Below are positions 6,605-64,000 of a DNA stretch of 64,000 bases, piece by piece. The stretch is from NCBI GenBank assembly GCA_010093745.1, contig MU006011.1, forward strand, positions 1 through 64,000, given 5' to 3'. A model generated the notes under the pieces. That model worked only from the letters and a program-made list of their open reading frames with translations, did not search any database and was not told where the DNA came from. The stretch is from Piedraia hortae CBS 480.64 (Eukaryota). Numbering within the stretch: the first letter of the stretch is position 1; every line of letters starts with the position of its first letter. A program made the translations under genes and the position numbers.

Positions 6605-6980
6605 TGACGAAGACAGATAGTATGTATGAGTGAGAACGATGGATGGAAAGTAGAGATGTGTTTTATGAGTGAATACAAGTATATCTTCGAGGGAACATCA
6701 GAGAATATATTCTGGGCTGGAAGGCCCGTGTGTAGCCTCGTATGAAGAGTCATCAATTGTATGACCATAAGCAAGTGGTCATACATGCAGTAAGACTGTC
6801 AGCATGCAGTCTTACTCCATGACTCACCTCATAACAGTAGCAGGGCGCATTCACCATGTCGCATGCGACATGACCCTGAGGGAAACCTCTGTGAGGACAA
6901 AACCTAGGGTGCAGCTGCTGGTGTAAGAGGTGTCGCGCAGTGGCATCGTACACTGATAGCAACGAGACTTCATGCCAACA
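6605..6980 (-). mobile_element. Solo LTR (family A1)
   Basis: TG...CA termini; TSD AAGGG (6600-6604 and 6981-6985); near-identical reverse complement of 10051-10424. Confidence 0.92.
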
Positions 6981-10050: not shown

Positions 10051-10424
10051 TGTTGGCATGAAGTCTCGTTGCTATCAGTGTATGCTGCCACTGCGCGACA
10101 CCTCTTACACCAGCAGCTGCACCCTAGGTTTTGTCCTCACAGAGGTTTCCCTCAGGGTCATGTCGCATGCGACATGGTGAATGCGCCCTGCTACTGTTTG
10201 AGGTGAGTCATGGAGTAAGACTGCATGCTGACAGTCTTACTGCATGTATAACCACTTGCTTAGGGTCACACAATTGATGACTCTTCATACGAGGCTACGC
10301 ACGGGCCTTCCAGCCCAGAATATATTCTGTGATGTTCCCTCGAAGACATACTTGTATTCACTCATAAAACACATCTCTACTTTCCATCCATCGTTCTCAC
10401 TCGTACATACTATCTGTCTTTTCA
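10051..10424 (+). mobile_element. Solo LTR (family A1)
   Basis: TGTTGG...TTCA termini; TSD TCTGC (10046-10050 and 10425-10429). Confidence 0.92.
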
Positions 10425-27009: not shown

Positions 27010-30000
27010 ATGGGCGAGGCGTTTTAGGTCGAAAGGAAAACCGCAAACCTCGAAGTTGCACACTCTTACCAAAGATGCCTCCGTATCACAGGCTACAGTT
27101 CTCACTTCTCAGCCTTCACAGCTACCCAATGTGCCAGTGCAAGTTTTACATTCAGTGGTAGTTCCCAAAAACCCTTCCAAGACAAGGGCCAATTGTTGCT
27201 TAATGCGCTTGCCGGTCTTACCTCCGATGATCGCATGCTTGTTCAGAAGGAACTAGGTAAAAGCAGCCATCTCGAAAGAGACACAGCTCGCATTATAGCC
27301 TCAAGGGGGCGAAATCAAACTCAAAGTTCCAATCGATGGATCATCGGGATGAGAAAGATTGTTTGTCTGATGATGCAATTTGCACCAGTAGTTGACGTCG
27401 CAGTGAATGTCCAAGGAGACATACTGAGCCTACCATGGGCTGGAATTCGTTCCCTACTGATGGTATGCAGCAATTTCGTAGTTGCAACCCTCATTGACGC
27501 AGTGTCTACAGGTGGCTCAGAAGGTTCACGAGCAAAGTGAGTCGACTTTGAAGGGAAGCGAAACAGCACTGGATACCAGCTACCTCTTGAGGGAGTACTT
27601 TGACATTTACAGTCAAGTCAATTGCACGCCCTAGGTTAAGCATTTGTACGACAACATTGCAAAGTTATACGGCCTCATTCTGAAGTTCTTGGCGAATGTT
27701 CATGAAACGTGCGTTATGAACCGTTTGGAACGTGTGGAACGTATCATTCACACTCTTGCTGGTGATGTTATACCAAACTTTAAGGCCGACCACGACAGAA
27801 CGTTGAAGACTGTTGAATCTCATGCAAGAGTTTGCGACCTTGAGGTATCCGAGGGACAGCGAACAATAATCAATGAACAGCTGAAGACGCTGAGAAAGAC
27901 CCAGGAAGAGATCAATGAAGGAATGAAGGGCACTCAACAAACCCTAGATCTTCGTGCTCTTCCAATCGTTGATGGAGCATCTTGCAACTCCATAGACTAC
28001 CGTAATGGCGATCATAATGGCGAACTAAAATTGTGTCTGGACGGTACCCGGGTGCAGATCGGGAAGAGAATAATGGACTGGGCCACAACCGCCGACGATC
28101 AAAGGGTATTCTGGCTGTCTGGAATGGCAGGGACGGGTAGGTCCGCCATTGCTTGAACTGTTGCCCACGAACTGGGAAACCAAGGTTACTTAGTCCGAAG
28201 CTTCTTTTTCAAGCGTGGCCAGGGCGAACTAAGCCACGTGCGTCGTCTGTTTCCCACTATTGCCCGTTAAATGGCCGAATTCATACCTTATATTAGCCGC
28301 AAGATTGCTGCCGCCTCTGATGGCGTACCTCCTGTTGATGAAAGGCCATTGACAAGTTAGTTCGAGACGCTTATTAAGGAGCCGCTTGTGTGATATAGCA
28401 CAGGCCAGGCAACAGATGTTAGGGTGATTGTCATCGATGCTCTCGATGAGTGCGAGGAATGGGGAGCGATAGGCAACGCCATGACCCTTTGGCACAAGCT
28501 TAGGGCCCACACTTCCATGAATTTGAGGGTGATTGTGACAAGCCGATCCGACAATAAGATTGGAGACAAACTCAAGCAAATAGATTCCGAAGACCTTCAG
28601 CACGCGAAGCTTGAACACTTGCAATCCAGTACTATCAGGCATGACTTGGCCCTGTTTTGTTACAACGAACTTAGCAAGATCCGCGAAAAGAGCAGGGAGG
28701 ATTTAGGTCTTGATGAACTAGAGGATGCCTGGCCAGGAGAGATCGTCGTAAACAAACTTGTTGACATATCTCAGCCACTGTTCATCGCTGCTTCCACGAT
28801 ATTAAGGGACGTGAACAATAATCCACGACAACAATCTCGTAAATGGGTGGGCCGGCTCAACTTCACTGGCGCACAGACGCTAACCGTGATATACTCTGAA
28901 ATCCTGGAAGAAGCCGCTGACCTCGACAAGGAGTGGCTGAGTTGGTTCAGCAAAGTCATTCAATCACTCGCACTTCTACAATCCCCACTCAGCATCCCAG
29001 CACTTACGGATCTGCTTGGAGACGGAGACAACATGGTCGTTCCGAATGCTCTCAAACCTTTGAGCTCCGTAATTGAGTCTCCAAGTGGCAAAGAGATGAG
29101 AGCGGGCTTGCAATCTACTGCAAGAATTTATCACGAGTCGTCCCGAGACTTTCTTTTGGATCCTAATCTCATGACCATATCTCGGTTCTGGACTGACCAA
29201 GAAAAGACACATGTTTTCCTCCTTAACAAATGCATGAAACTGCTCAAGCACAAGCTAGGTCGCGATGTGTGCAAGCGCAAAGGTCCAGGAACAGATTGGA
29301 AATCCACGCCATCAGAGCATGTTTACAAGCATATTCCTGAGTCAGTGCAGTATGCTTGCGTTAATTGGGCCAGCCATGCAACCCAGAGCAATCAGACGAT
29401 CCAAGATGGTGGACAAGTGGGCTGTGTCTTGCGCGAATGTTTCCTATTTTGGACAGAAGCAATGTCTTAGCTGGACAAGCTTGGGAAAATGACGATCAGC
29501 CTAAGCAGTTGGAACGAGCTATTGACATAAGTTTATTGTCCGTTTTTGGTCGAGGGTTTAGCGACTAATCATACGTAGGGAGATCTCTCACCTGGTGTAC
29601 AGTCATTTTTCGCCGATGCTCTAAGATGGCTACCGGCACATCGAATCACGATAAGCGGCGCACCGCTTCAAACATATCTCCCAGCACTGGTTTTTGCGCC
29701 AAATAAGAGTATTGTAAGAAACAGCTTCAAGCAAGAAGTGGACGACTTCTTGCAAGTTTGGTCGCCAGTCGAGAGTGATTGGGGGCTCGAACTGCAAACA
29801 CTGAAAATGCGTGTTGGTTACATGTGGTCGATAGCACCTTCAATTGACGGCAAAAGACTTGTAACGGCTTTGGATGATGGGACAATACGACTATGGAATG
29901 TACAAGACTGTGCCGAAGAGGGGTGTTTGGAGATTGTCTCACGTGGCGTTGCTTCATCTCCCTCTAGAGACAACCTTTCGGTAATCACTGGGGCGAATGG

Positions 30001-31750
30001 TGGTCTTATGAAGTTGCAATCGAGCGAAGAGCCCAGAAGAATCGATTTAAAGCTGCCTGGTCGTGCATGTTGCGTTTCTGTATCTCCAGATGGCCGATTT
30101 TTTGCCGCTCGGGGCCTGGACACGGGCGGCATTTACATTTGGCATGCCGATAACAACCCCAGGAAGGTGATTCAGGGTCACAATTCTCAAGTGCATGGCA
30201 TGGCATTCTCATCGGAAAACGGGTCATTGGTTTCTGGATTCACGGATATCTGGATATGGAGCGCCAAAGGTGGACATGAGATGATGTGCCAAGTAGATGC
30301 TGACGTTGAACACATCGTCATATCACCGGACGGCACTTTCGTAGATTTTTATTCTGAATGCAGTATTTTTGTATTATACTGTGAGACTCGTGAAGTTGAG
30401 CGGATAATGGAAGGGATATGGGATCCTTCGGTTCTCACGTTTACTCCCGACGGCCAGAAAGTCTTGATCACGATTGTCCGAGAACTTTTCCTGTATGCAT
30501 TTGGAACAAAATCCAAGCCTATCAAGCTATCTTTGGATGATCGGGTTGGAAGCTTCCTGTATATCATGGCATTCTCTCCCGATGGAAAAACCACCTGGGC
30601 TGGGTACTCGGATGGAGTGGTGATACAGTTTGACACAACCTTGTTATTGGATAGTCAGCGGCCGAGAGCTGGTGATGCTGCTGTCGCCTTGTCAACAGAT
30701 GGCTTGACGCTCTCTGCCTTATCTCGGTATAGCCAGCTCAGTCTCTGGAATACTGAAACACAGAGTTGCACACACCACATATCACATGAGAGGCTCCACA
30801 ACTTTCACAATTTTGGAAGACATGTCTTAATCTCATCCGATAGCCGTTCAGTGGTTGTTGCCGGTACAGCATGTCGCCAGGGCCAAGTAGTTTTGATTTG
30901 GAACCCTGAAACAGATGAATTGAAGGAGCTCGAAGAGATTCCAGGCCACATTACTGCGACCGCGATCTCAGTTGACAGCAGGACTCTACTTTGCGGCTCA
31001 AAGGAAGGCCAAATATATGCCTATGAATTGAAAAGTGGTGTCCGACCGAGAACGTCAACGGTGCATACGCGCAGTATCAGAGAAATCGTGTGTTCTCCAA
31101 CTGGGCAAGATTTTGCTTCACTATCAGGCGATGAAGAGATAAAGATGTGGAGCCTTCAATCACAAAACCCCTTGACACTCGGCGACAAGGCTACCATACT
31201 CAAATCAGTTTTCTCAGCAGACGTCGTAGGGTTTTCACATTTGATACTTTCAACGACATCTGTGGATGGGACATTGAAAAAGAGTGCAAGGTGCGAAAGC
31301 TTGGAAACGGACCTTTGGTTGGTGGTTCTATACTATTCAATGGTCGCTTCGTGGCTGCAGAATTTCTGCCCCTTCTGCAGAGGTCAAAGGAGGATGAAGG
31401 TGACCAAGCTCTGGCGAAGGCAAATGTTTCGGCATCTACAAAAGCCCCTCAACATTTAAAGACCGCGAGCTTTGGGCTTTGCAAGCATTCGGTATGGGAA
31501 CTGCACGGTGGGTCACTGTGAGTGGTCGGAAAGTAGTCCAGTTTCCAGTTCAGATGAGCCATGGACTTGGGACCTCGTGTGGGCAGAAAATGGTCGTTCC
31601 TCACGATCAGACTGGTTTCACTTTCTTCAATTTTACGGGAAAGATGTCTTTCTAGCGGAGGATACATTTATTGGTGGGCACGAGAATTTTCATAACGCCA
31701 CATACCCAGCATATGTTGTTGAGAAGTATCAGTGCCATACCTCGGCCTGA
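27010..31750 (+). pseudogene. NACHT-WD40 (HET-E/NWD-like fungal NLR) pseudogene
   Basis: N-terminal SLPWAGIR; intron ~27463-27511; CLDGTRV; P-loop WLSGMAGTGRSAIA*; VIDALDEC; IYHES; WD40 repeats; in-frame stops at 28154, 28268, 28358 and 29468. Confidence 0.9.
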
Positions 31751-39599: not shown

Positions 39600-39970
39600 T
39601 GTAGCGATAAGGCTCTCATTGATGGGAGTGCGTAGCGGCCCGAGCTAAGAGGACGAAGCAATAGACGGAAATCGACAACAGGGACAGGACAGATGCAGAT
39701 GGATATGAGTTAATACCAGTGTCGACATAACAGTGTGAATGACCATCTATCTCTATGAGGGGACGTTCAGAATGAAAATCTGTACCGGTGGGCCGGTGAC
39801 GTCACGTCGCACATTAGCAGGGCGCATTCGCCATGTCACATATGACATGACCCTGAGGGAAAACCTCTGTGAGGGAAAAATCTAGAGTGCAGCTGGTAGT
39901 GTAGGAGGTATCGCTGACTTGCTATGCAAGTGCCCCGCATACGCGCTAGCGGCGATGCTTAAATCCAACA
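39600..39970 (-). mobile_element. Solo LTR (family A2)
   Basis: Reverse complement of 51504-51866; TG...CA termini; flanks do not form a TSD. Confidence 0.85.
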
Positions 39971-45219: not shown

Positions 45220-45800
45220 NNNNNNNNNNNNNNNNNNNNNNNNNNNNNNNNNNNNNNNNNNNNNNNNNNNNNNNNNNNNNNNNNNNNNNNNNNNNNNNNN
45301 NNNNNNNNNNNNNNNNNNNNNNNNNNNNNNNNNNNNNNNNNNNNNNNNNNNNNNNNNNNNNNNNNNNNNNNNNNNNNNNNNNNNNNNNNNNNNNNNNNNN
45401 NNNNNNNNNNNNNNNNNNNNNNNNNNNNNNNNNNNNNNNNNNNNNNNNNNNNNNNNNNNNNNNNNNNNNNNNNNNNNNNNNNNNNNNNNNNNNNNNNNNN
45501 NNNNNNNNNNNNNNNNNNNNNNNNNNNNNNNNNNNNNNNNNNNNNNNNNNNNNNNNNNNNNNNNNNNNNNNNNNNNNNNNNNNNNNNNNNNNNNNNNNNN
45601 NNNNNNNNNNNNNNNNNNNNNNNNNNNNNNNNNNNNNNNNNNNNNNNNNNNNNNNNNNNNNNNNNNNNNNNNNNNNNNNNNNNNNNNNNNNNNNNNNNNN
45701 NNNNNNNNNNNNNNNNNNNNNNNNNNNNNNNNNNNNNNNNNNNNNNNNNNNNNNNNNNNNNNNNNNNNNNNNNNNNNNNNNNNNNNNNNNNNNNNNNNNC
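45220..45800. other. Assembly gap (581 N)
   Basis: Run of N. Confidence 1.
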
Positions 45801-50439: not shown

Positions 50440-51110
50440 TCGATGCTGAACTCGTATCGTCATACAAGGATTCGCATAGATCCAAGGCATCGACTACTCC
50501 GAGACATACGTCCCTCTTGCCCGCTTCGACTATATCCGACTCCTTCTCGTGCTCGCCGCCTATTTCAGTATCATGCCCCATCAGATGGATTTTGCCACTG
50601 CGTATCTCAATGCGCCTCTGCCCCATGTCATCTGCATGCATCAACCACCAGGCAAGTCCGAGAACGGCCTTACTCGGACTGCAAAAAGGCTCTCTATGGC
50701 CTCAAGCAGTCAGGACGAGAATGATACGGGACCCTCTCCTCCAAACTTGAACAAGGTACACACAGACAAGGCTGGACCCGTGCATCTTCACACATTCCAA
50801 GCAACAGATCTACATCGGAATATACGTCGGCGATATCTTGATTGTGAGGGACTCCAAAGCGGTCAAAAATTTCAAGGAAACCATGAGCAATACTTTCAAG
50901 CGCAAAGATCTGGGCCTAGCAAAGTGTCTTCTTGGCCTTGAGGTTTTCGCCTCGGCAACCACCATCAAGATGCGTCTTAAGCCAAGCGCGTGCTGGAACG
51001 GTACGGGATGTCGACATGCAATGGGTGCATCACGCCAATGGACCCCACCAACTGCCCCGAACCGGACGACGAGGAGGTGTTAGCCAATTACGGCTCTACC
51101 AGCAGAAGAT
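50440..51110 (+). mobile_element. Ty1/copia reverse transcriptase remnant
   Basis: HQMDFATAYLNA, MHQPPG, KALYGLKQSGRE*, DPCIF, IYVGDIL, KDLG...LGLE, LERYGM; frameshifted. Confidence 0.9.
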
Positions 51111-51503: not shown

Positions 51504-51866
51504 TGTTGGATACAAGCACCGCCGCTAGCGCGTATGCGGGGCACTTGCATAGCAAGTCAGCGATACCTCCTACACTACCAGCTGCACCCTAGGTTTTTCC
51601 CTGACAGGGGTTTTCCCTCAGGGTCATGTCATATGTGACATGGCGAATGCGCCCTGCTAGTGTACGACGTGACGTCACCGGCCCACCGATACAGAGTTTA
51701 TATCCTGAACGTCCCCTCAATTTGAGAAAGATAGTCATTTACACTGTCATATCGACACTGGTATTGACTCATATCCATCTGCATCTGTCCTGTCCCTGAT
51801 TCGGTCTATCGCTTCGTCCTCTTCGGGCCGCTGTGTACTCTCACCAACGCGAGCCTAATCGCTACA
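51504..51866 (+). mobile_element. Solo LTR (family A2)
   Basis: TGTTGG...CTACA termini; TSD AGGCT (51499-51503 and 51867-51871). Confidence 0.92.
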
Positions 51867-54059: not shown

Positions 54060-54859
54060 CCGAGCTAGCTGATCTCTGGACCAAACTTCTTGAGAAGTAT
54101 TTGGCATGCACATCCAATGGGAATGTGTACATATTCCTACCTACCCTGAATAAGTGAGATATACTCTGCTCAGATGAGGCCACGATCAGCCTCAATGCCC
54201 TCATGGAGCTCGACTCTGCATCCGTCAATTATGACGAGGCGTTCCGTCCGTACGTCAAGTACATCGAGAGGAATGCTACTGAGAACATTGCGGCTTCAAT
54301 ACATACGAGTGTGTGCATAGGTACAAAGAGACTGCGTGTGAGTATGCAGAAAGACAGACTCATGTTTGCACTATGCGAACCTGTATTGGCCAACAGCCCT
54401 GCTTATACTAAGTCAAGTGCGATATCATCACTGTGCTACATGCCACTATCTATAAAGTATTGGCCCAAAGAATGGAGTCGCACTGATGACTTCCCTATGT
54501 ACAAATTCATTGCACCTCTCTTTGTGGACCCAACTGAGCTCCTGAGCATAGAGCAGGCTATCGGAAATGCCCTAATCGATCCTGTAGCTTCGAGCAAGGC
54601 GGTAATCCTATACGGTGAGGGAGGCACAGGGAAGAGTACGTTATTGGCTGCCATCAAGACCTCATTCATGGGATGCTGCGGAAGTATCCCAGGAAAATCC
54701 CTTGTGGGGCTCTCTAAGGGCAGCTCAAAGAATCAGACCTCTGAGCTTCCTGTGACAGAAACCATAAGTAAGAAAAACCAACCATATCAATGGAAATGGA
54801 AATCGCTCCAATCCATCATGTCCTTAAACCGCCAGCGATTTGATGGCTCCGCATCCTAA
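54060..54859 (+). pseudogene. D5/SF3-like P-loop helicase/ATPase remnant
   Basis: IGNALIDPVASSKAVILYGEGGTGKSTLLAAI (Walker A at 54614-54637); frame extends upstream through a single TGA (GNVYIFLPTLNK*); degenerates after SLVGLSKG. Confidence 0.6.
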
Positions 54860-57800
54860 AATCAATGCACTGTGGGTTCGGTGAGTACCACGACACCAAC
54901 CTTGAAATCGTTCAAGAGCCATTCTTGGCGTTCGTCGATTCGAACAACGTCTGGCCAATTCGCGCATTACTCTTGAGACGAGCCCATCTTTCCCTCTGGT
55001 CGTCGTCTACCCGGTGCGTTTCGTGGACACGTAGTCGGAAACCTTACACGTTGGCAGAGTGCTATTTATAGGCAGGGACTTTCTATTGTCGCAACCTACT
55101 GAGGAGACGAGACACTTGAGTTACAGGAAGCCCTACATCCAGAATCCCTCTGCTTGCGTTGTCGCGCTATGCCCTCATATATCGAACGTACAGTATATAC
55201 GTCAATGAAAGACCCTCCTCGTAGTCAAGCCTCCTCAACGAAAAGGGAAAACAAGCGATTCACATAGATAACAGCTACCTATCGACCAGTCGCCGAATAA
55301 TATAGAGCTGTCTTTGCCGGTGTGCCGGCGATCCTATACCGCAGGGGATCACCAAATCACTTGCTGACTTCCCCGGGCAGACGCAGCTCAGCTTCGCACC
55401 AAGTTTAAATTGTCGAGGCAAAGCTTAAAACAGAAGCCAATGCTCACTTTCTGTGAGCAGTGACTCCGGAGGAGTGAAGAGAGCACCCCAATCGTGGGCG
55501 CAGATACCGGGGATTGGCGCATCCCAACCAGAAAGAGACTGTATAGGATGGGTCACTGTTGGCTTGGAGATGACATGTGACGAGAGGTGTCGGCCCTGCA
55601 AGTATTCTGTGCGTACCGCAGGTCACTCTGTTGAGCGATGCAGGTCAGTTCGTTGGGCGATATATTGCGCACGTCGTTTAGACTCGTGGGAAGCCTGGCG
55701 ACTAGGTTTTCGAGTCATGCTTTATCGTTTCGAGGTGCCGTGGTGCCGACAGACCATGCTATACTTGGAGGTTTTATTGTTCGTTGGTACTTTTGATATA
55801 CGCTTCTTGTAGCAGGCAGTCCTTCGAAAGTTGGTGGCCGTGATGATGCAGAGCGAGAAGCTAATCATATGGTCGGCATTAGATCTTAAACCACGAATGA
55901 GAAGGCCTCTGCAAGACTCTGAAGTGTCTCAATGTTTTGGTTGTGCTACGCTCAAAATTTGTAACACGATGCTTTTCCACGGATAAGAAAGGTGGGGAAA
56001 AGGCCCCACCTGAATAATGGGTAGCACCCAAATACTCGCAAACTCTACTCATGCACAATACCGGCACTTGGTAAACCAGTTTCAGTCCGAAACGTACAAG
56101 GGCTTGAACTTACATCCACAGCTATTCGCACAGCCTCCATGACTATCGAATCACCAAGTTACCGCAGCGCAGGCACAGCGGTGCGACAAACTTAAAGATA
56201 ACATAGCAGCGTGTCCTCGGTTGCGACTCATTCTCACCAACTTCCACAACAGTACGAGATCAAATGGAGTAGTCGCACGGTTTCTACAACCGGCGGACCG
56301 ACACCTCCGCCCAATTATCATCTTGAACAAAATGGCTAGTCCCATCCGGCTTCAGCCGGTTGGGATGCACGCCATGCCCTGGTCACAATTGCCGTGTATC
56401 CACGGTCTTGGGCGCTCAGTCCTGGTATTTGGGCAGGGACTGCTATTACCTATTGAAATCCTGCCCCGATGAACTCATGTCATTTCACGAGGGACAGGTT
56501 GCACTTGCCTGGAACGCCAGCAAGTTGCAAATCCTGTATGGGATCCAGATCCTGCTTTTCAGACACCAATGGCCTTTAAGATCAAAATGCAGCCGAGCGA
56601 GGGAGCTAGTTGAAGGAGGCCATGTTCAAGTTGAGTCACACGAGGCTCTTTAGGGATTTGCTGGGTTGCCGTGCCTTGGAGCATTCCGACGGTTGATGGG
56701 CTCCGCGAACCAAGATCCACTGGCACCGTTTGAAACAACCCATCCTAGCGCAACTCAAGGGGATCGCTAGGGCATCTCAAAAGCAGCCAGTTCGGGACCG
56801 CTAGGCTGGTGGCGTGCTGCTGTGCCATCAGCAAACCATGAATAAACCTTGGTAAGAAGCTGATGCTCTTCTGCAAAATACTAATTCACAGTAGCAAACA
56901 AGGACAAACATTGCGACTACGCTGTTCATCATGAAATGTTTTGGCATACAATGACACGACTGTTCTCGCGTTCCTTTCAAGATCCCAGTGTACCTCTACC
57001 TTGTCCCTGGTGGAGTGATAGCCAGCCTCGTTCCACGCAATGGTTCATTCGACACATCTCTATGTCGATCACTGTGTACAACGACAAAGTCGACTGTCCC
57101 ATGATTTTTCCTCCCATTGAACTGTATTCTTCTTTCTGATTCCCATTATGACGCTGGAATTGCTTCCGTCACTCGTGGCTCTCTACACATTACTCACGTT
57201 ATTGGAGAGTCCACTAGCAACTTTCGCACACTGGCAATAGGTTTACCTTGCCATACCCGAACATGTCTTTGCAGAAGCATTTGTGAAGTTTGCAGAGTAG
57301 TTATATATGTCTGAGAAAGCATATCTTGCAGCTCCTCGCGTTTTGGGCGTGAGCTGCTCACATGGGAAAGTAATGGAGCAAAATTTGTCTGGTGCCTGGG
57401 ACAGAGATGTCTTACGCGCATCCTATGCGGCAAAGATAACATTACTACAGTAAGCATTACGACTTAACGCGAGTAGATTATTTGAATGCATCGATTGCTG
57501 GGGCTTCAATTGGACAGTCTGGGCGAGAGAGAACGTTGGGAGTACCGTGTTTGGAAATGGCCACTTGGGCATCGGCCATAGAGAATCCAGACATCATGCC
57601 ATGTAGAGATCGGGATGAATTTATTTATATGCCAAGCCTCTTTACACGGGCCTAATTACCCAAACTTCACTCCATGTCCTCCTAATGGATAGCATTCGCA
57701 TGACAGCATGTGCAAAACGTTTTAAATTAAATAATAGCGACGCACGAAGGCGAATTAAATTGACGTGACACGTTCAGAGGTCATATTCATGGATAGGACG

Positions 57801-58082
57801 CGAAGTGACACGCAGTGACGCGCCCAAGTCAACCCGCGAATATTCATTCCGCTTCCTCCGCTTCCTCTGTCTCTTCTACAACATCCTATCCCGAAATCAT
57901 ATTTACTCATAATGCCACGCCGCACCAGCCTCGCTGCTGCCATGCGCGGACGAACATGTTGATAAGGCAGTTGCCGACAAGTTGCTGTTGGAGCTTGCTG
58001 CCGACGCCAGCATTTTGCGCGTTTCAGGTGAGCCTATGCCACGTGTTGCAATTAAATATTCCCCTCGCAATGGGCCCTAAGT

Positions 58083-58645
58083 ATGACTTCCGATACTAAC
58101 GATACCCTAAATAGCAACGTGGTTGGCACCGTAGATCTCGACATCATCGTCAAGCTTCAAACGGTGGGCGAGAGCGCCATCAATGTGGAATACTTTCCCA
58201 GTCGTTTCACTGAAGCGAGGATCCGCTTGCCGGAGCTGAGATCCTGCACGTCGGTCTTTCCCAACGGCATGCTTGTTGTGACAGGGACATCGTACTGAGC
58301 CAACTGTCGTCTTGCTGGGCTTAAGATTGCGCGCATGCTGCAAACTGTCGGGTACAAGCTACTTTTTGGGGGCTCCAAGGTCACTAATATGGTAGCGAGT
58401 GCCGATCTGGGCTACTAAGTGCATATGCATGCAATGAAGGCATCACTGGAACTAGAAGAGCATATTTTACTGTGCATCTTTGAATCTGAGTTGTGCTGTG
58501 TATTGACCTACAGATTCGAGAAGCTTTCAGTAGCCGTGTATTCCACTGGAAATGTGGTGTTCAGTGGCGCCACAGCTGGAGACGCTATCACGGACACTTA
58601 AAATCATATCACCACTTTTCCTCGCCCGTTTTGCATCGAGAAGTC
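58083..58645 (+). pseudogene. Divergent intronless TATA-binding-protein-like gene
   Basis: Both TBP repeats in one frame: NVVGTVDL..EYFPSRF..SVFPNGMLVVTG* ..KIARMLQTVGY..KVTNMVASADL..* ..FESEL..LTYR..VYSTGNVVFSGA; stops at 58296, 58416 and 58599. Confidence 0.85.
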
Positions 58646-59037
58646 ACGAATACTGAGCAGCATTGATGGCCGTTGTTAGGAGGTAGCGCGATCAGTAGCG
58701 GATGTTGGCCTATCGGTATGACACGTTCTTAAGGCATGGCGGGACTGGGTGGGCTAGGGCTCTCATAATAGCTGAGCATAGATTTATATGCAATTTACAG
58801 ACTATTCTGTTCATTAAAGTTCTCTTTCCACTGATCTGATACACAGATGCGGCCCCAAAGAAACGTAATGCAAAGCGCTGGGCATCCACTTTCCAGTACA
58901 TCAAACGTTTTTCCGAGTTGCTGCATTACTTGGCAGACGAGATCCAAAGGTCGTATTACTTCTGCCAAAGGTGATATGTCAGGGGTTTTTGACCGGTGGA
59001 AGGATGGAAACCTGTAATCATGAAAACAGACCCCGAT

Positions 59038-59814
59038 CTACTCACTACACACGGATCTGTCTCGACAACTCGCAAAATCCTTGCTGCCCAACTCACTCTC
59101 GCCTTCATCATTTGACTCGGGTGCATTGTCCTTGCAACGCTGCTTTCCCTTGAATGCCGCTCTCTGGGCCTGAAAATCTTCCCCTAAATCTCGCCGGTAA
59201 TTGCGCGAAAAACTCAAGGCCTCGTTATGCTTGCTACTTGCAGAGATGGGGAACTCCTTGACGGGACACTCCGCCAGAACAATCGGAGGAAGGGAGATGG
59301 GCACCAGCCCCCTTGTCTGCGGACGCTTGCCGCGGAGCGGTTTATGATTTTCCCGTTCGGAGACCATCTTTCTTGCCCTCCTTTCCATTTCTGTCTCCTC
59401 CTTCTCAATTGCCCGAGGCGCCTTTCGTTTCTTCTGGAGCTTGCGGCGTGGGCGTTCAGGCTTGGAGAGGATACGGTGAAGGGGATTTGAAGGTTTGCTG
59501 TCCTCGGGGGCCGCCACTGCCTCGAACACAGGCACGTCCGCCTTGGGGTGGTAAAATGGAGTACCGGTAGGGTCTGGCGCAGAGTTGTGAAATTGCGCCG
59601 CTTGAATGGCGCCATCGTCGTCTGTGTAAAAGAATATATGGTTTTCCGTTTTATATATGATGTCGGGCTCAACTGGTGCCGGCCAGCGGCAGTTTTCCCA
59701 TGCGAAATTTGCCTGGTCTTCATGGCGTGAGGAATTTGCTGTGTTCTTGCATAGTCTAAGAACATGGTCCTTCACGGAGAGAAGAATTTTCTTCAGGGTC
59801 GTCTTGGAAGGCAT
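59038..59814 (-). CDS. Hypothetical basic protein (orphan)
   Basis: Intact 258-aa ORF from an ATG with a pyrimidine-rich leader; K/R-rich RRKLQKKRK; no recognisable domain. Confidence 0.5.
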   Translation of the reverse strand: MPSKTTLKKILLSVKDHVLRLCKNTANSSRHEDQANFAWENCRWPAPVEPDIIYKTENHIFFYTDDDGAIQAAQFHNSAPDPTGTPFYHPKADVPVFEAVAAPEDSKPSNPLHRILSKPERPRRKLQKKRKAPRAIEKEETEMERRARKMVSERENHKPLRGKRPQTRGLVPISLPPIVLAECPVKEFPISASSKHNEALSFSRNYRRDLGEDFQAQRAAFKGKQRCKDNAPESNDEGESELGSKDFASCRDRSVCSE

Positions 59815-60118
59815 TGTGGAGATCGTGTGTAGACGATATTGGTATCAGGAAGATTGAAGGAGGGTTTCGACAGTAGAAGATAGAACAGAGGAGGTTGCAA
59901 ACATGATTTGTTGCTATCTTTCCGTGAGCCACACATGTTGGCTTGGAGAGTTAAAAATCACAGTGGATTGACTCAAGACAACTCTATTGTCTCCGAGAGG
60001 AAAGTGGGTGCAAGAACAACACATGTACCAAGGATGAGCTGGAGATAACTTCAAAGTCGTTACGACTGATTAACTTGAGCTTGTGGTTTATTATCGTAGC
60101 TTCATCACCGAAGGAGTC

Positions 60119-60545: not shown

Positions 60546-61920
60546 TTCACCTCACCACATTACCTCAGCATTTACATACACACATAGCAACACATATATG
60601 TGTCTCACACACCATTGCCTGACCCATAAAATCCGACATCAACTATCATCTGAATCGTTGGTATATCATGGCGAGTAACGCATCGTTGTACACAATGCTC
60701 GCTTCGAGGCTGTTTTGCGAAACTTCACGTCACTCGCACAGACCATCTGGAAATGTCTGCACCGTAAAGCTTGAATGAGCAATGCTCTTGTCAAATATTT
60801 GGAACAAAGCAGCAAAATAATAGCAAGGTATCCGAATTCCACATTCAATGTACCTTAACAACAATGACACACCGTTCGGTAATGGCTTCGTGTCGGTGAA
60901 ATGTACGGCTCGGAAATCCTCCCTTACCAATAACCACACATTCGTCCAGCTCTTCGATACATAAAATCACTCAACGCCCACATTTTAATGTCTACTCATA
61001 CTGCACAACTTAACGCGATAAACCACGACCAACCAAGAATCAAAACGATTACCACGGGTTCACCTCTGGATCTCAAGCCTTTGACTTACTCTCGTCGAGT
61101 TCATGTTAGCCGGCACCTACCATCCTGATAAACCGGTTCTTATCGATGCGGACAACCCTGCGAGGTTTGTCCCTCTTCGCAGGGCACATATCGGCATTAA
61201 ATACCTCCGACGCTTCTTCTATCCTCGCACGGTCGTCTGCACGCATTTGCAGAATGGTGTGCGCTATCCGCTATACGTGCTAAGCATCTTAGCAGCCTGT
61301 GCCATCTGGAACGGCATTCATACTTTATACACGGCGGCAGAGGTCCAGCACCATTTCGTCACCTCGAACACCGCTTAGATCATAACTGAGATGGAACATG
61401 TTGAAACAATTCAAGTTGCGATCGATTCCAGCTCAAGATCAAGGTCCTCCTGCTGTCCGATATGGCAAACAGCACGATGAAGAGTTCTGGACCTCATTCG
61501 TACATTAACCTGATCAGCGTGGCTGTTATGATGAACACGAGCGGCACAGCATGCCTGTCAAAGACTGTGGCCAGCAGCCTTCGTGCTTTCATTAATGACC
61601 TGATCGATGCGGGGTCCACAGAAGGTACCAGGGATTACGAAATTCGTCGAATATTCTGCGTGCCCATCCTCCGCGGATATGGCGCGCCAGAAATGACCTT
61701 CAACGCCTTGCATTATGGCCATGTCAGCTTTTTTCATGCGCCGCCTGGATGGAACGTTTGCGCAGAAATTCCACAATTTCGGCATTACCAAGATGGATGG
61801 GGCTCCGTCTCGGAAGCTGCATCTGGTCAACGACCTGTCTCATTACCATTTCCTCCAGTCGCTGTGCCGCATTTCTGTCGGGGGCGCCAAACTGGCGCCG
61901 GAGTTGAGAAAGGTGACACT

Positions 61921-62060
61921 TGTTGCATTCAACATCGCCGCTAGCGCGTATGCTGGGCACTTACATAGTAAGTCAGCGATACCTCCTACACTACCAGCTG
62001 CACCCTAGGTTTTTCCCTCACAGTGTTCTCCCCTCAGGGTCATGTCATATGTGACATGGT
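61921..62060 (+). mobile_element. 5' part of a family A2 LTR, truncated at a family B LTR
   Basis: Matches the first ~140 bp of the 51504 LTR. Confidence 0.85.
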
Positions 62061-62582: not shown

Positions 62583-64000
62583 ATGGGCGCGACGCTTAAA
62601 CTCGCAAGGAAAACCGCAGACTTTGAAGTTACACACTCCCATTTCACATGCTTCCGTGTCACAGACCTTAGATCCCGGTTCAAGACTCTCTAACATGCTC
62701 CTGCAAGCTCCAGCCCCAGTTATACTTCTGGAGAATTCCTTTCAGGATAGGAGGGCGTTGAGGCTCGACTCCCTGGCCGGTCTCCCATCCGATGATCGCA
62801 TGCTTGTTGAGAAAAAACTTTGTTCAAATAGTGACCTCGACCGGGATACGGCCCGCATAATGGCCTTGCAGTGTCAGAATCAAACAGAACGGTCCAATGG
62901 ATGGCAGAGTGGGATGAGAATGATTGGTCGACTGATGATGCAATTTGCGCCAGTATTTAAAGTCGCTACAAATGCCCAAGCAGGCGTGCTCAGCCTGCCT
63001 TGGACTGCTATCTGCTCCCTCTAAATGGTAAGCAGAAGTGGTCTGATTGATACCTTAAGTAACACTATCTCTACAGGTGGCTCAATAGGTTCACCAGCAG
63101 AATGAGTCAATCTGAAAAGGAATTGAATAGCACTAGACACAAGCTACTTCATCACCGTGTATCTTGATATCTACAGCCAGCTTATTGGCACGCCCTCGAT
63201 CACACATCTGTATGAGAACATTGTCAAGTTATATGGTCTTATCCTGATGTTCTTTTCGCGAAAATCGACAGAACAGGCGAAATGAACACGAGGAGAGTGT
63301 TATGCATTCGCTCGCGGATGAGGTTATACTGAGGTTCAGAACCTAAAACGACACATTGCTGGAAACTGTTGGGTCTCATGCAAGAGCTTGCAATGCTGAG
63401 GTATCCGCGGAAAAGAGGGCAGTTGTCCACAGCTAAAGGTGCTGAGAAGGCCCAGGAAGAGGTCAATGACGGAGTGAAGGGCATTCAACAAATCCTAGAT
63501 CTTTGTGCTCTTCCGATCGCTGATAAAGCAGCTTACAACTCCATGGACTACTGTAATCCCGATCACAATGGCGAGCTACAGCCGTGTCTGGACGGTACCT
63601 GGGTGCATATCAGGAAGAGAATAATGGCCTGGACCACCGCCAACGATCAAAGGGTAATGTGACTATCTGGAAATGCAGGGAGGGGTAAATCCACAATTGC
63701 CCGAACCGTTGCCTACGAACTAGGGAAACAGGGTTACTTGGTCGGAAGCTTCTTTTTCAAGCGTGGCCAGGGCAAAATTGCCGGATCACTGAAGTAACTC
63801 GACGCTGATTTGGCATTAAAGGGTCAGGAGAAAAAGCTCGGCCCCGCTACTGTCGCTTTGTCCAAAGACGGCCAATTGATTGCCTCACTGTCTCCACCTC
63901 AGAAACTAGGCCTTTGGAATGCTGGAACACAGATCTGCGGAAAAGAATTACTGGATGCGAGCCTTCTCAATATTACCTTGTCGTCTGGAAGCCTGGTCTT
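62583..64000 (+). pseudogene. Second NACHT-WD40 pseudogene, paralogue of the 27010 locus with a large internal deletion
   Basis: LAGLPSDDRMLV, SLPWTAI, same intron position, CLDGT, GRGKSTIARTVA, SFFFKRGQG, then a jump to WD40 VALSKDG. Confidence 0.88.

Follow-up and report, generated by a model that had tools for sequence, protein, structure and literature searches.

TBP in fungi is usually regarded as a single-copy and nearly invariant protein. In the passages available from one source, TBP has an expansion index of 1, that of a single-copy family, across the ascomycetes studied (PMC9934661). TBP paralogues are described in animals, and the metazoan TRF1, TRF2/TBPL1 and TRF3/TBPL2 are extra TBP paralogues that retain the saddle fold and that, in the parts of the sources available, belong to animal lineages (PMC7221094, PMC3597702, bioRxiv 10.1101/2025.10.03.680374). 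One of them, TBPL1, is described in an available passage as having a DNA-contact Phe changed to Trp, suggesting a different promoter preference (PMC7221094). The TBP-like proteins of nucleocytoplasmic large DNA viruses likewise have a two-lobe TBP fold, but they are far more distant from the sequences described here, and IMG/VR gave no confirmed relative of these sequences.

Here we describe a locus in Piedraia hortae CBS 480.64 (57912-58679, + strand; coordinates refer to the window, by which we mean the whole 64-kb stretch of DNA that was analysed) that we read, with a probability of roughly 85%, as a two-exon gene copy, now dead, that belongs to a small family of very divergent TBP paralogues restricted to one lineage, referred to below as TBPL. 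In the databases searched, the only other known members of this family are KAF2860982.1 and KAF2861005.1 (P0002 and P0003 below). The window copy would have been born by a duplication at the DNA level, because it keeps its intron, and would then have lost its function. Whereas the metazoan factors belong to animal lineages, the fungal family is confined to one lineage in the databases searched, and it appears to have originated independently of them. On this reading the Piedraia (Dothideomycete) lineage carries a strongly remodelled TBP paralogue family that duplicates and dies, and the intact members, should they be functional, would represent TBP-related factors of fungi in which the second lobe is changed. 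The P. hortae genome is the smallest of 101 Dothideomycetes, at 16.95 Mb and 7,572 genes, and the passages of that source that name Piedraia do not mention TBP (PMC7082219). Neither 'TBP paralog' nor 'TBP duplication' occurs in the text of PMC6672047, and a literature search for fungal TBP paralogues of the TBPL kind found no description of one.

The TBP core, its predicted fold and its relatives

The core was read in frame from 58083 to 58601 on the + strand, in translation with in-frame stops, and contains two repeats:

58116..58367, + strand: TBP repeat 1 (approximate limits, from the best Pfam stretch at residues 11-88, the alignment and the model)
58368..58598, + strand: TBP repeat 2 (approximate limits, from the PDB search, the alignments and the model)

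The five motifs that the original prediction had quoted (NVVGTVDL, EYFPSRF, VFPNGMLVVTG, NMVASADL and VYSTGNVVFSGA) are all found there, and Pfam PF00352 matches the core in two tandem stretches (E 2.8e-22, 78.8 bits against a cut-off of 22.9). A sequence search of the PDB with the core returned 35 distinct TBP sequences, led by the TBP of Chaetomium thermophilum (7Z7N, E 1.2e-19), with archaeal TBPs at E 1e-8 to 1e-12, and a PHROGs search with the TBP-like read-through gave no match. A structure prediction, which had been proposed as a check, bears out the identification: the AlphaFold model of 58116-58667, for which stops were entered as X and 55 TBP sequences were aligned, has a pLDDT of 91.7, a high value that is driven by the alignment of intact TBPs, and a pTM of 0.79. 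Searched against PDB structures, this model finds 44 of them at E<=0.001, with TBP chains in the first 43 places (TM 0.87), and it superimposes on human, yeast and plant TBP with TM 0.86-0.87 and an rmsd of 1.4-1.6 A at 26-31% identity. We are confident that the core, as modelled, would adopt the TBP saddle fold, in common with canonical TBP/Spt15 (PF00352 twice; PDB 1YTB, 7O4I chain O and 7Z7N chain D).

A word-indexed search of 5.8 billion proteins gave two matches only, both from Piedraia hortae CBS 480.64 and both entered as 'TATA-box binding protein-like protein'. These are P0002 (KAF2860982.1, 183 aa, partial), with 71% identity to the window copy, and P0003 (KAF2861005.1, 230 aa), with 67%; the ungapped tblastn identities are 69% and 66%, respectively. 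Both lie on another contig, of 287,431 bp, and both are intact open reading frames, unlike the window copy, which has three stops, 44 private replacements and a disrupted exon 1. Common to all three are the N-terminal exon and the indels of the second lobe: repeat 2 has an insertion of 4-5 residues after its first helix and a stirrup that is shorter by 2 residues, and in the alignment it carries Cys and Tyr at the two Phe positions. The three form one clade (SH-aLRT 100) in a quick tree that has very long branches, was built without a named TBPL1 sequence and does not give the family's place among eukaryotic TBPs.

Canonical TBP/Spt15 has four DNA-kinking Phe residues, two per lobe, which we take to be F99, F116, F190 and F207 of yeast TBP; the window copy, P0002 and P0003 have the lobe-1 pair only. 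Both of these positions are kept in repeat 1 of the window copy, where the EYNPKRF motif is changed by N to F and K to S. The family is about 31-39% identical to canonical TBP/Spt15 and differs from it in the replaced Phe pair of the second lobe and the shorter C-terminal stirrup, whereas the first-lobe Phe pair is kept and the intact relatives retain the EYNPKRF and ARK motifs. From this combination of a retained saddle and first-lobe Phe pair with Cys/Tyr in the second lobe and a shortened C-terminal stirrup, we infer that the intact TBPL members are probably TBP-related factors with altered promoter recognition.

The family stands apart from other TBPs in the larger searches as well. HMMER against 1.84 billion representatives gave 1154 matches at E<=1e-3, among which only P0002 exceeds 39% identity; the second match is a tandem plant TBP whose high score comes solely from matching twice. 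A profile of the TBPL family together with a further P. hortae protein, P0012, gave 783 matches in 5.8 billion proteins, and the 120 matches listed consist of the three Piedraia proteins plus ordinary plant, fungal, animal and protist TBPs at 36-44%. P0012 (KAF2860983.1, 220 aa, 'putative TATA-box binding protein') represents a second very divergent TBP type. Its accession directly follows that of P0002, with which it shares the 287,431-bp contig. In clustering at 50% it represents its own cluster, and its score against yeast TBP is only 145 bits. Compared with canonical TBP it differs at 69 of the 135 conserved columns, it is only 30-36% identical to TBPL, and unlike TBPL it retains the lobe-2 'ELFPG' and 'IF' Phe positions and a full-length stirrup. 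P0012 and TBPL have identical residues at 10 of 44 co-varying derived positions, which is suggestive, at most, of a common ancestry.

There is also a hint of one more TBPL copy in the same genome. A 302-nt contig of the DNA run X1 has 58473-58506 (34 bases) in common with the window, the stretch at which the run X1 assembly breaks, and its upstream part diverges with a TBPL motif still readable. The count would then be two intact TBPL genes, P0012 beside one of them, the window pseudogene and perhaps one more copy; within the 64-kb window, tblastn with P0002 and P0003 found no second TBPL copy.

Genomic surroundings and the origin of the family

Up to about 49.9 kb the window carries ordinary housekeeping genes, for example those for kinesin, DGAT, a DEAD-box helicase and PRP39. 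Among named sequences the kinesin ORF is matched best, at 62-64%, by Zasmidium, Lecanosticta and Oleoguttula, members of the Mycosphaerellales and allies, which places the window in a Dothideomycete of this group. The region from 49.9 to 64 kb is gene-poor, with Copia reverse transcriptase fragments, a D5-like fragment, copies of a dispersed repeat and an NLR-like paralogue. The dispersed repeat family, about 140-370 nt long, 82-97% identical and present in both orientations, is found at:

669-971: dispersed repeat copy
6610-6980: dispersed repeat copy
10051-10420: dispersed repeat copy
39600-39970: dispersed repeat copy
51504-51866: dispersed repeat copy
61919-62059: dispersed repeat copy

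At 50480-51083 (+) two adjoining ORF fragments match Copia-type RVT_2 (E 1.2e-12 and 8.7e-11), and by its sequence the stretch is classed as a decayed retrotransposon. A 233-aa ORF with a Walker-A motif at 54158-54859 (+) matches phage primase/helicase PHROGs at E 7e-6 to 1e-4, with the primase families at 7e-6 to 1e-5, and ESM Atlas clusters carrying DUF5906/D5_N with a score of 0.95, and Pfam places it with generic P-loops below the cut-off. It appears to be a piece of a D5-like SF3 primase-helicase, a protein that is unusual for a fungal chromosome. The single IMG/VR match of this ORF (locus L001, 61% over 25 residues) was judged too short. Pfam was applied to the + strand of 52-56.2 kb, where it gave P-loop matches only, and elsewhere (minus strand, 56.2-64 kb) to ORFs of at least 109 aa.

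Several further features of the window were recorded. A 1.2-kb stretch at 27010-28228 has a paralogue at 62583-63776 (71.6% nucleotide identity); the former sits a short way upstream of an NLR-like gene of the NACHT/WD40 type (28394-31459), and the latter carries a GRGKST P-loop near 63.8 kb. Convergent with the pseudogene lies a 258-aa orphan ORF at 59038-59814 (-), which has an exact counterpart in the ESM Atlas, where its model is poor (pLDDT 0.43); the best score in the Atlas search was 0.76, and no family was found in it. Inside an aldo/keto reductase gene there is a scaffold gap at 45220-45799, and the low GC and the ORFs open in six frames seen there are due to its run of 580 N.

These surroundings give a weak counter-hint to a cellular origin. 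The TBPL family could have entered on a mobile DNA element or in a large DNA virus, with the TBPL genes as cargo of a virus-derived or other element scattering copies, the window copy as the remnant of an insertion, and the D5-like fragment and the Copia debris as further insertion remains; the fungus would then have gained extra basal transcription factors through mobile DNA. We consider this unlikely. It would fit the very long stem that leads to the TBPL family in the quick tree, the position of the window copy in the gene-poor region with the Copia fragments and about 3.3 kb downstream of the D5-like/DUF5906 SF3 NTPase fragment, and the spread of TBPL copies over two or more contigs, namely that of the window and the 287-kb one with P0002 and P0003, with run X1 hinting at an additional one. 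However, a scan of IMG/VR with the family profile gave 112 pattern matches and 0 confirmed relatives, and viral structures in BFVD superimpose on the model with TM 0.39-0.74 and 7-17% identity, the best of them with an rmsd of at least 3 A and 8-17% identity, as against TM 0.87, 1.4 A and 26-31% for cellular TBPs. The TBPL proteins also share about 35-44% identity with eukaryotic TBPs, the segment ahead of the core included, and the intron of the window copy is spliceosomal and contains a TACTAAC box. The locus is not flanked by terminal repeats, the sole direct repeat (127-142 nt) belonging to the dispersed family that occurs at six places in the window, and no other viral hallmark was found on the + strand of 52-56.2 kb. 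A viral or element-borne origin of the window copy is not supported. The original prediction had left the choice between a viral or element-borne TBP and an unknown TBP-related factor; the second term stands, and against the viral one speak the IMG/VR scan, viral TM values of 0.74 or less at 17% identity or less, and the intron.

Gene structure, splicing and lesions

Our reading of the locus as a dead TBPL copy rests on the following features:

57912..58050, + strand: ancestral exon 1 (N-terminal extension), now in three frames (tblastn with P0003, frame translations)
57942..57945, + strand: putative frameshift 1 (the ATG frame ends early and the P0003-like frame starts here)
58042, + strand: putative frameshift 2 (a single base where P0003 has the second Pro codon of GEPVP-P-VLH)
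58028..58114, + strand: intron as removed, 87 nt, with donor GTGAGC, TACTAAC at 58094-58100 and acceptor TAG at 58112-58114 (run X2 contig)
58051..58114, + strand: putative original intron, 64 nt (CA at 58049-50 and C at 58115 give the His that precedes NVVGT in P0003)
58115..58679, + strand: exon 2, with both TBP repeats and a C-terminal tail, closed by TAG at 58677-79 (tblastn, Pfam, codon reading)
58296..58298, + strand: in-frame TGA, Arg in both relatives (codon reading and alignment)
58416..58418, + strand: in-frame TAA, Arg in both relatives (codon reading and alignment)
58599..58601, + strand: in-frame TAA, Tyr in both relatives (codon reading and alignment, tblastn)

The original prediction had described the gene as having no intron and almost no N-terminal extension. 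This is overturned by an exon 1 that begins with the ATG at 57912 and by the GT..AG intron at 58028-58114. The intron is seen in run X2, for which the same organism was sequenced again in another study; its RNA nature is only guessed, and it covers 57944-58025 and 58113-58201 while leaving most of 57000-60000, including the exon-2 stops, uncovered. A single contig of 172 nt joins these two stretches without mismatches; the joint at 58025|58113, with the cut moved by +2 so that 58027 meets 58115, gives GT..AG ends, has 82 letters on its shorter side and contains no additional letters, and the same joint was not seen in the run X1 DNA contigs at the locus. Because the contig skips 58028-58114, the 'MTSDTNDTLNS' start at 58083 is intronic. 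The window copy is apparently still spliced and probably transcribed.

Exon 1 can be read in three frames: frame 1 with the ATG at 57912 and 11 codons, frame 2 with about 33 codons (57943-58041), and frame 3 with V-L-H(CA) (58043-58050). In tblastn within the window, residues 16-47 of P0003 align to 57952-58047 in a frame other than that of the core (E 1e-5), and the first 11 codons after the ATG are identical to the N-terminus of P0003 at 5 of 11 positions, as judged by eye. Since the VPPVLH before NVVGT in P0003 aligns with the 'VPxLQ' before NIV in human and Chaetomium TBP, the P0003 gene model is credible ahead of the core; the exon-1 frameshifts and the loss of the donor rest on this model and on the 11 codons matched by eye. 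The frame of the ATG at 57912 runs for 16 codons and then meets TGA-TAA at 57960-65, and the P0003-homologous frame begins at 57943, with no ATG upstream of it and a stop that lies directly before 57913 in frame 2. Around 58042 the window reads GEPMP in frame 2, one base, and VLH in frame 3. The donor at 58051 now reads AT, not GT, and a cryptic upstream donor at 58028 would be used in its place.

As originally predicted, the core has three stops and no frameshift: tblastn with P0002 and P0003 aligns it over 58116-58631 in one frame, ungapped. The stop at 58599-601 is internal, with homology to the relatives reaching about 58631 and the frame ending only at the TAG at 58677-79. Three kinds of lesion are seen directly: the three nonsense codons of exon 2, the position of the only upstream ATG out of frame with the homologous coding frame, and, in the run X2 contig, splicing that joins the GTGAGC donor at 58028 to the acceptor at 58114 and removes coding sequence. 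To these would presumably be added two 1-nt-equivalent frameshifts in exon 1, the change of GT to AT at donor 58051 and many replacements at positions conserved in canonical TBPs. The intact reading frame of canonical TBP/Spt15 is absent from the window copy; a TBP-like protein cannot be made from it, and its product is at most an untranslatable RNA.

It is very improbable that the gene is functional, with its stops and frameshifts being assembly errors or bypassed by readthrough or an alternative start. The absence of any indel in exon 2, the confident read-through model and the existence of a spliced contig could be taken that way, but the lesions are of several independent kinds, 17 private replacements fall at conserved TBP sites, neighbouring genes are readable under the standard code, and the high pLDDT stems from the alignment of intact TBPs. 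Over 57000-60000 the run X1 contigs are identical to the window in every letter, including the three exon-2 stops, an agreement that is not independent insofar as run X1 may be the source of the assembly, and run X2 confirms 57944-58025 with the TGA-TAA of the ATG frame.

Divergence of the family and of the window copy

The distance of the window copy from canonical TBP has two components, one common to the family and one private to the copy. Of the 181 sites aligned, the window copy, P0002 and P0003 agree at 108; the private sites number 44 in the window copy, 5 in P0002 and 8 in P0003, and at 16 sites all three differ. In the quick tree the terminal branch of the window copy measures 2.81, compared with 0.075 and 0.14 for the relatives. 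Of the 135 columns conserved in at least 9 of 10 canonical TBPs, 60 are changed in the TBPL family, and identity to ascomycete TBP is about 31% for the window copy and 39% for P0002, against 74% for a canonical pair over the whole aligned length. Because it is common to two intact relatives, most of the distance from canonical TBP arose under selection, as the original prediction had proposed.

The private component has another character. At 17 of the 44 window-private changes the intact relatives carry the residue kept in at least 8 of 10 canonical TBPs, and the reverse pattern, with the window copy canonical and the relatives not, occurs at only 3 sites in our reading of the alignment table; the polarity rests on the three proteins and a reference set of 10 canonical TBPs. 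The changes at conserved sites include, in EYNPKRF, N to F and K to S; in REPK, R to P and P to L; in ARK, R to L; and in EPEL, P to S. The substitutions of the window copy had been said to keep the DNA-contact pattern, and this does not hold for the window-private ones, as EYFPSRF illustrates: EYNPKRF is found in both intact relatives and in 10 of 10 canonical TBPs. Judged from the alignment, the private changes look like relaxed or absent constraint, decay rather than adaptation.

This decay does not carry the mark of RIP. RIP is indicated by TA/AT above about 0.89, (CA+TG)/(AC+GT) below about 1.03 and a dominance of GC>AT transitions. In the window copy TA/AT is 0.68 and (CA+TG)/(AC+GT) is 1.44, and the 37 single-step private replacements comprise 19 transversions, 10 GC>AT, 6 AT>GC and 2 ambiguous changes, so that neither the indices nor the replacement spectrum of the copy contain a RIP signature, as had been expected. 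A recent duplicate or retrocopy of the canonical host SPT15, degraded by RIP or neutral drift, would also be a pseudogene with a TBP fold, but this has next to no probability given the 31% identity to canonical ascomycete TBP against 65% to P0002, the family-specific indels common to the intact genes, the kept intron and the negative RIP indices at a GC of 0.51, and the earlier claim that the locus is no recent SPT15 copy is upheld. A processed pseudogene would be intronless, and here the intron is present in the DNA and skipped in the run X2 contig.

Within the dead TBPL copy, exon 2 has 0 indels in 565 nt beside the 44 private replacements, a count below what long neutral decay usually gives. 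Part of the private divergence may predate the death of the copy or reflect relaxed selection only, and because exon 2 is without an indel, that death may be fairly recent.
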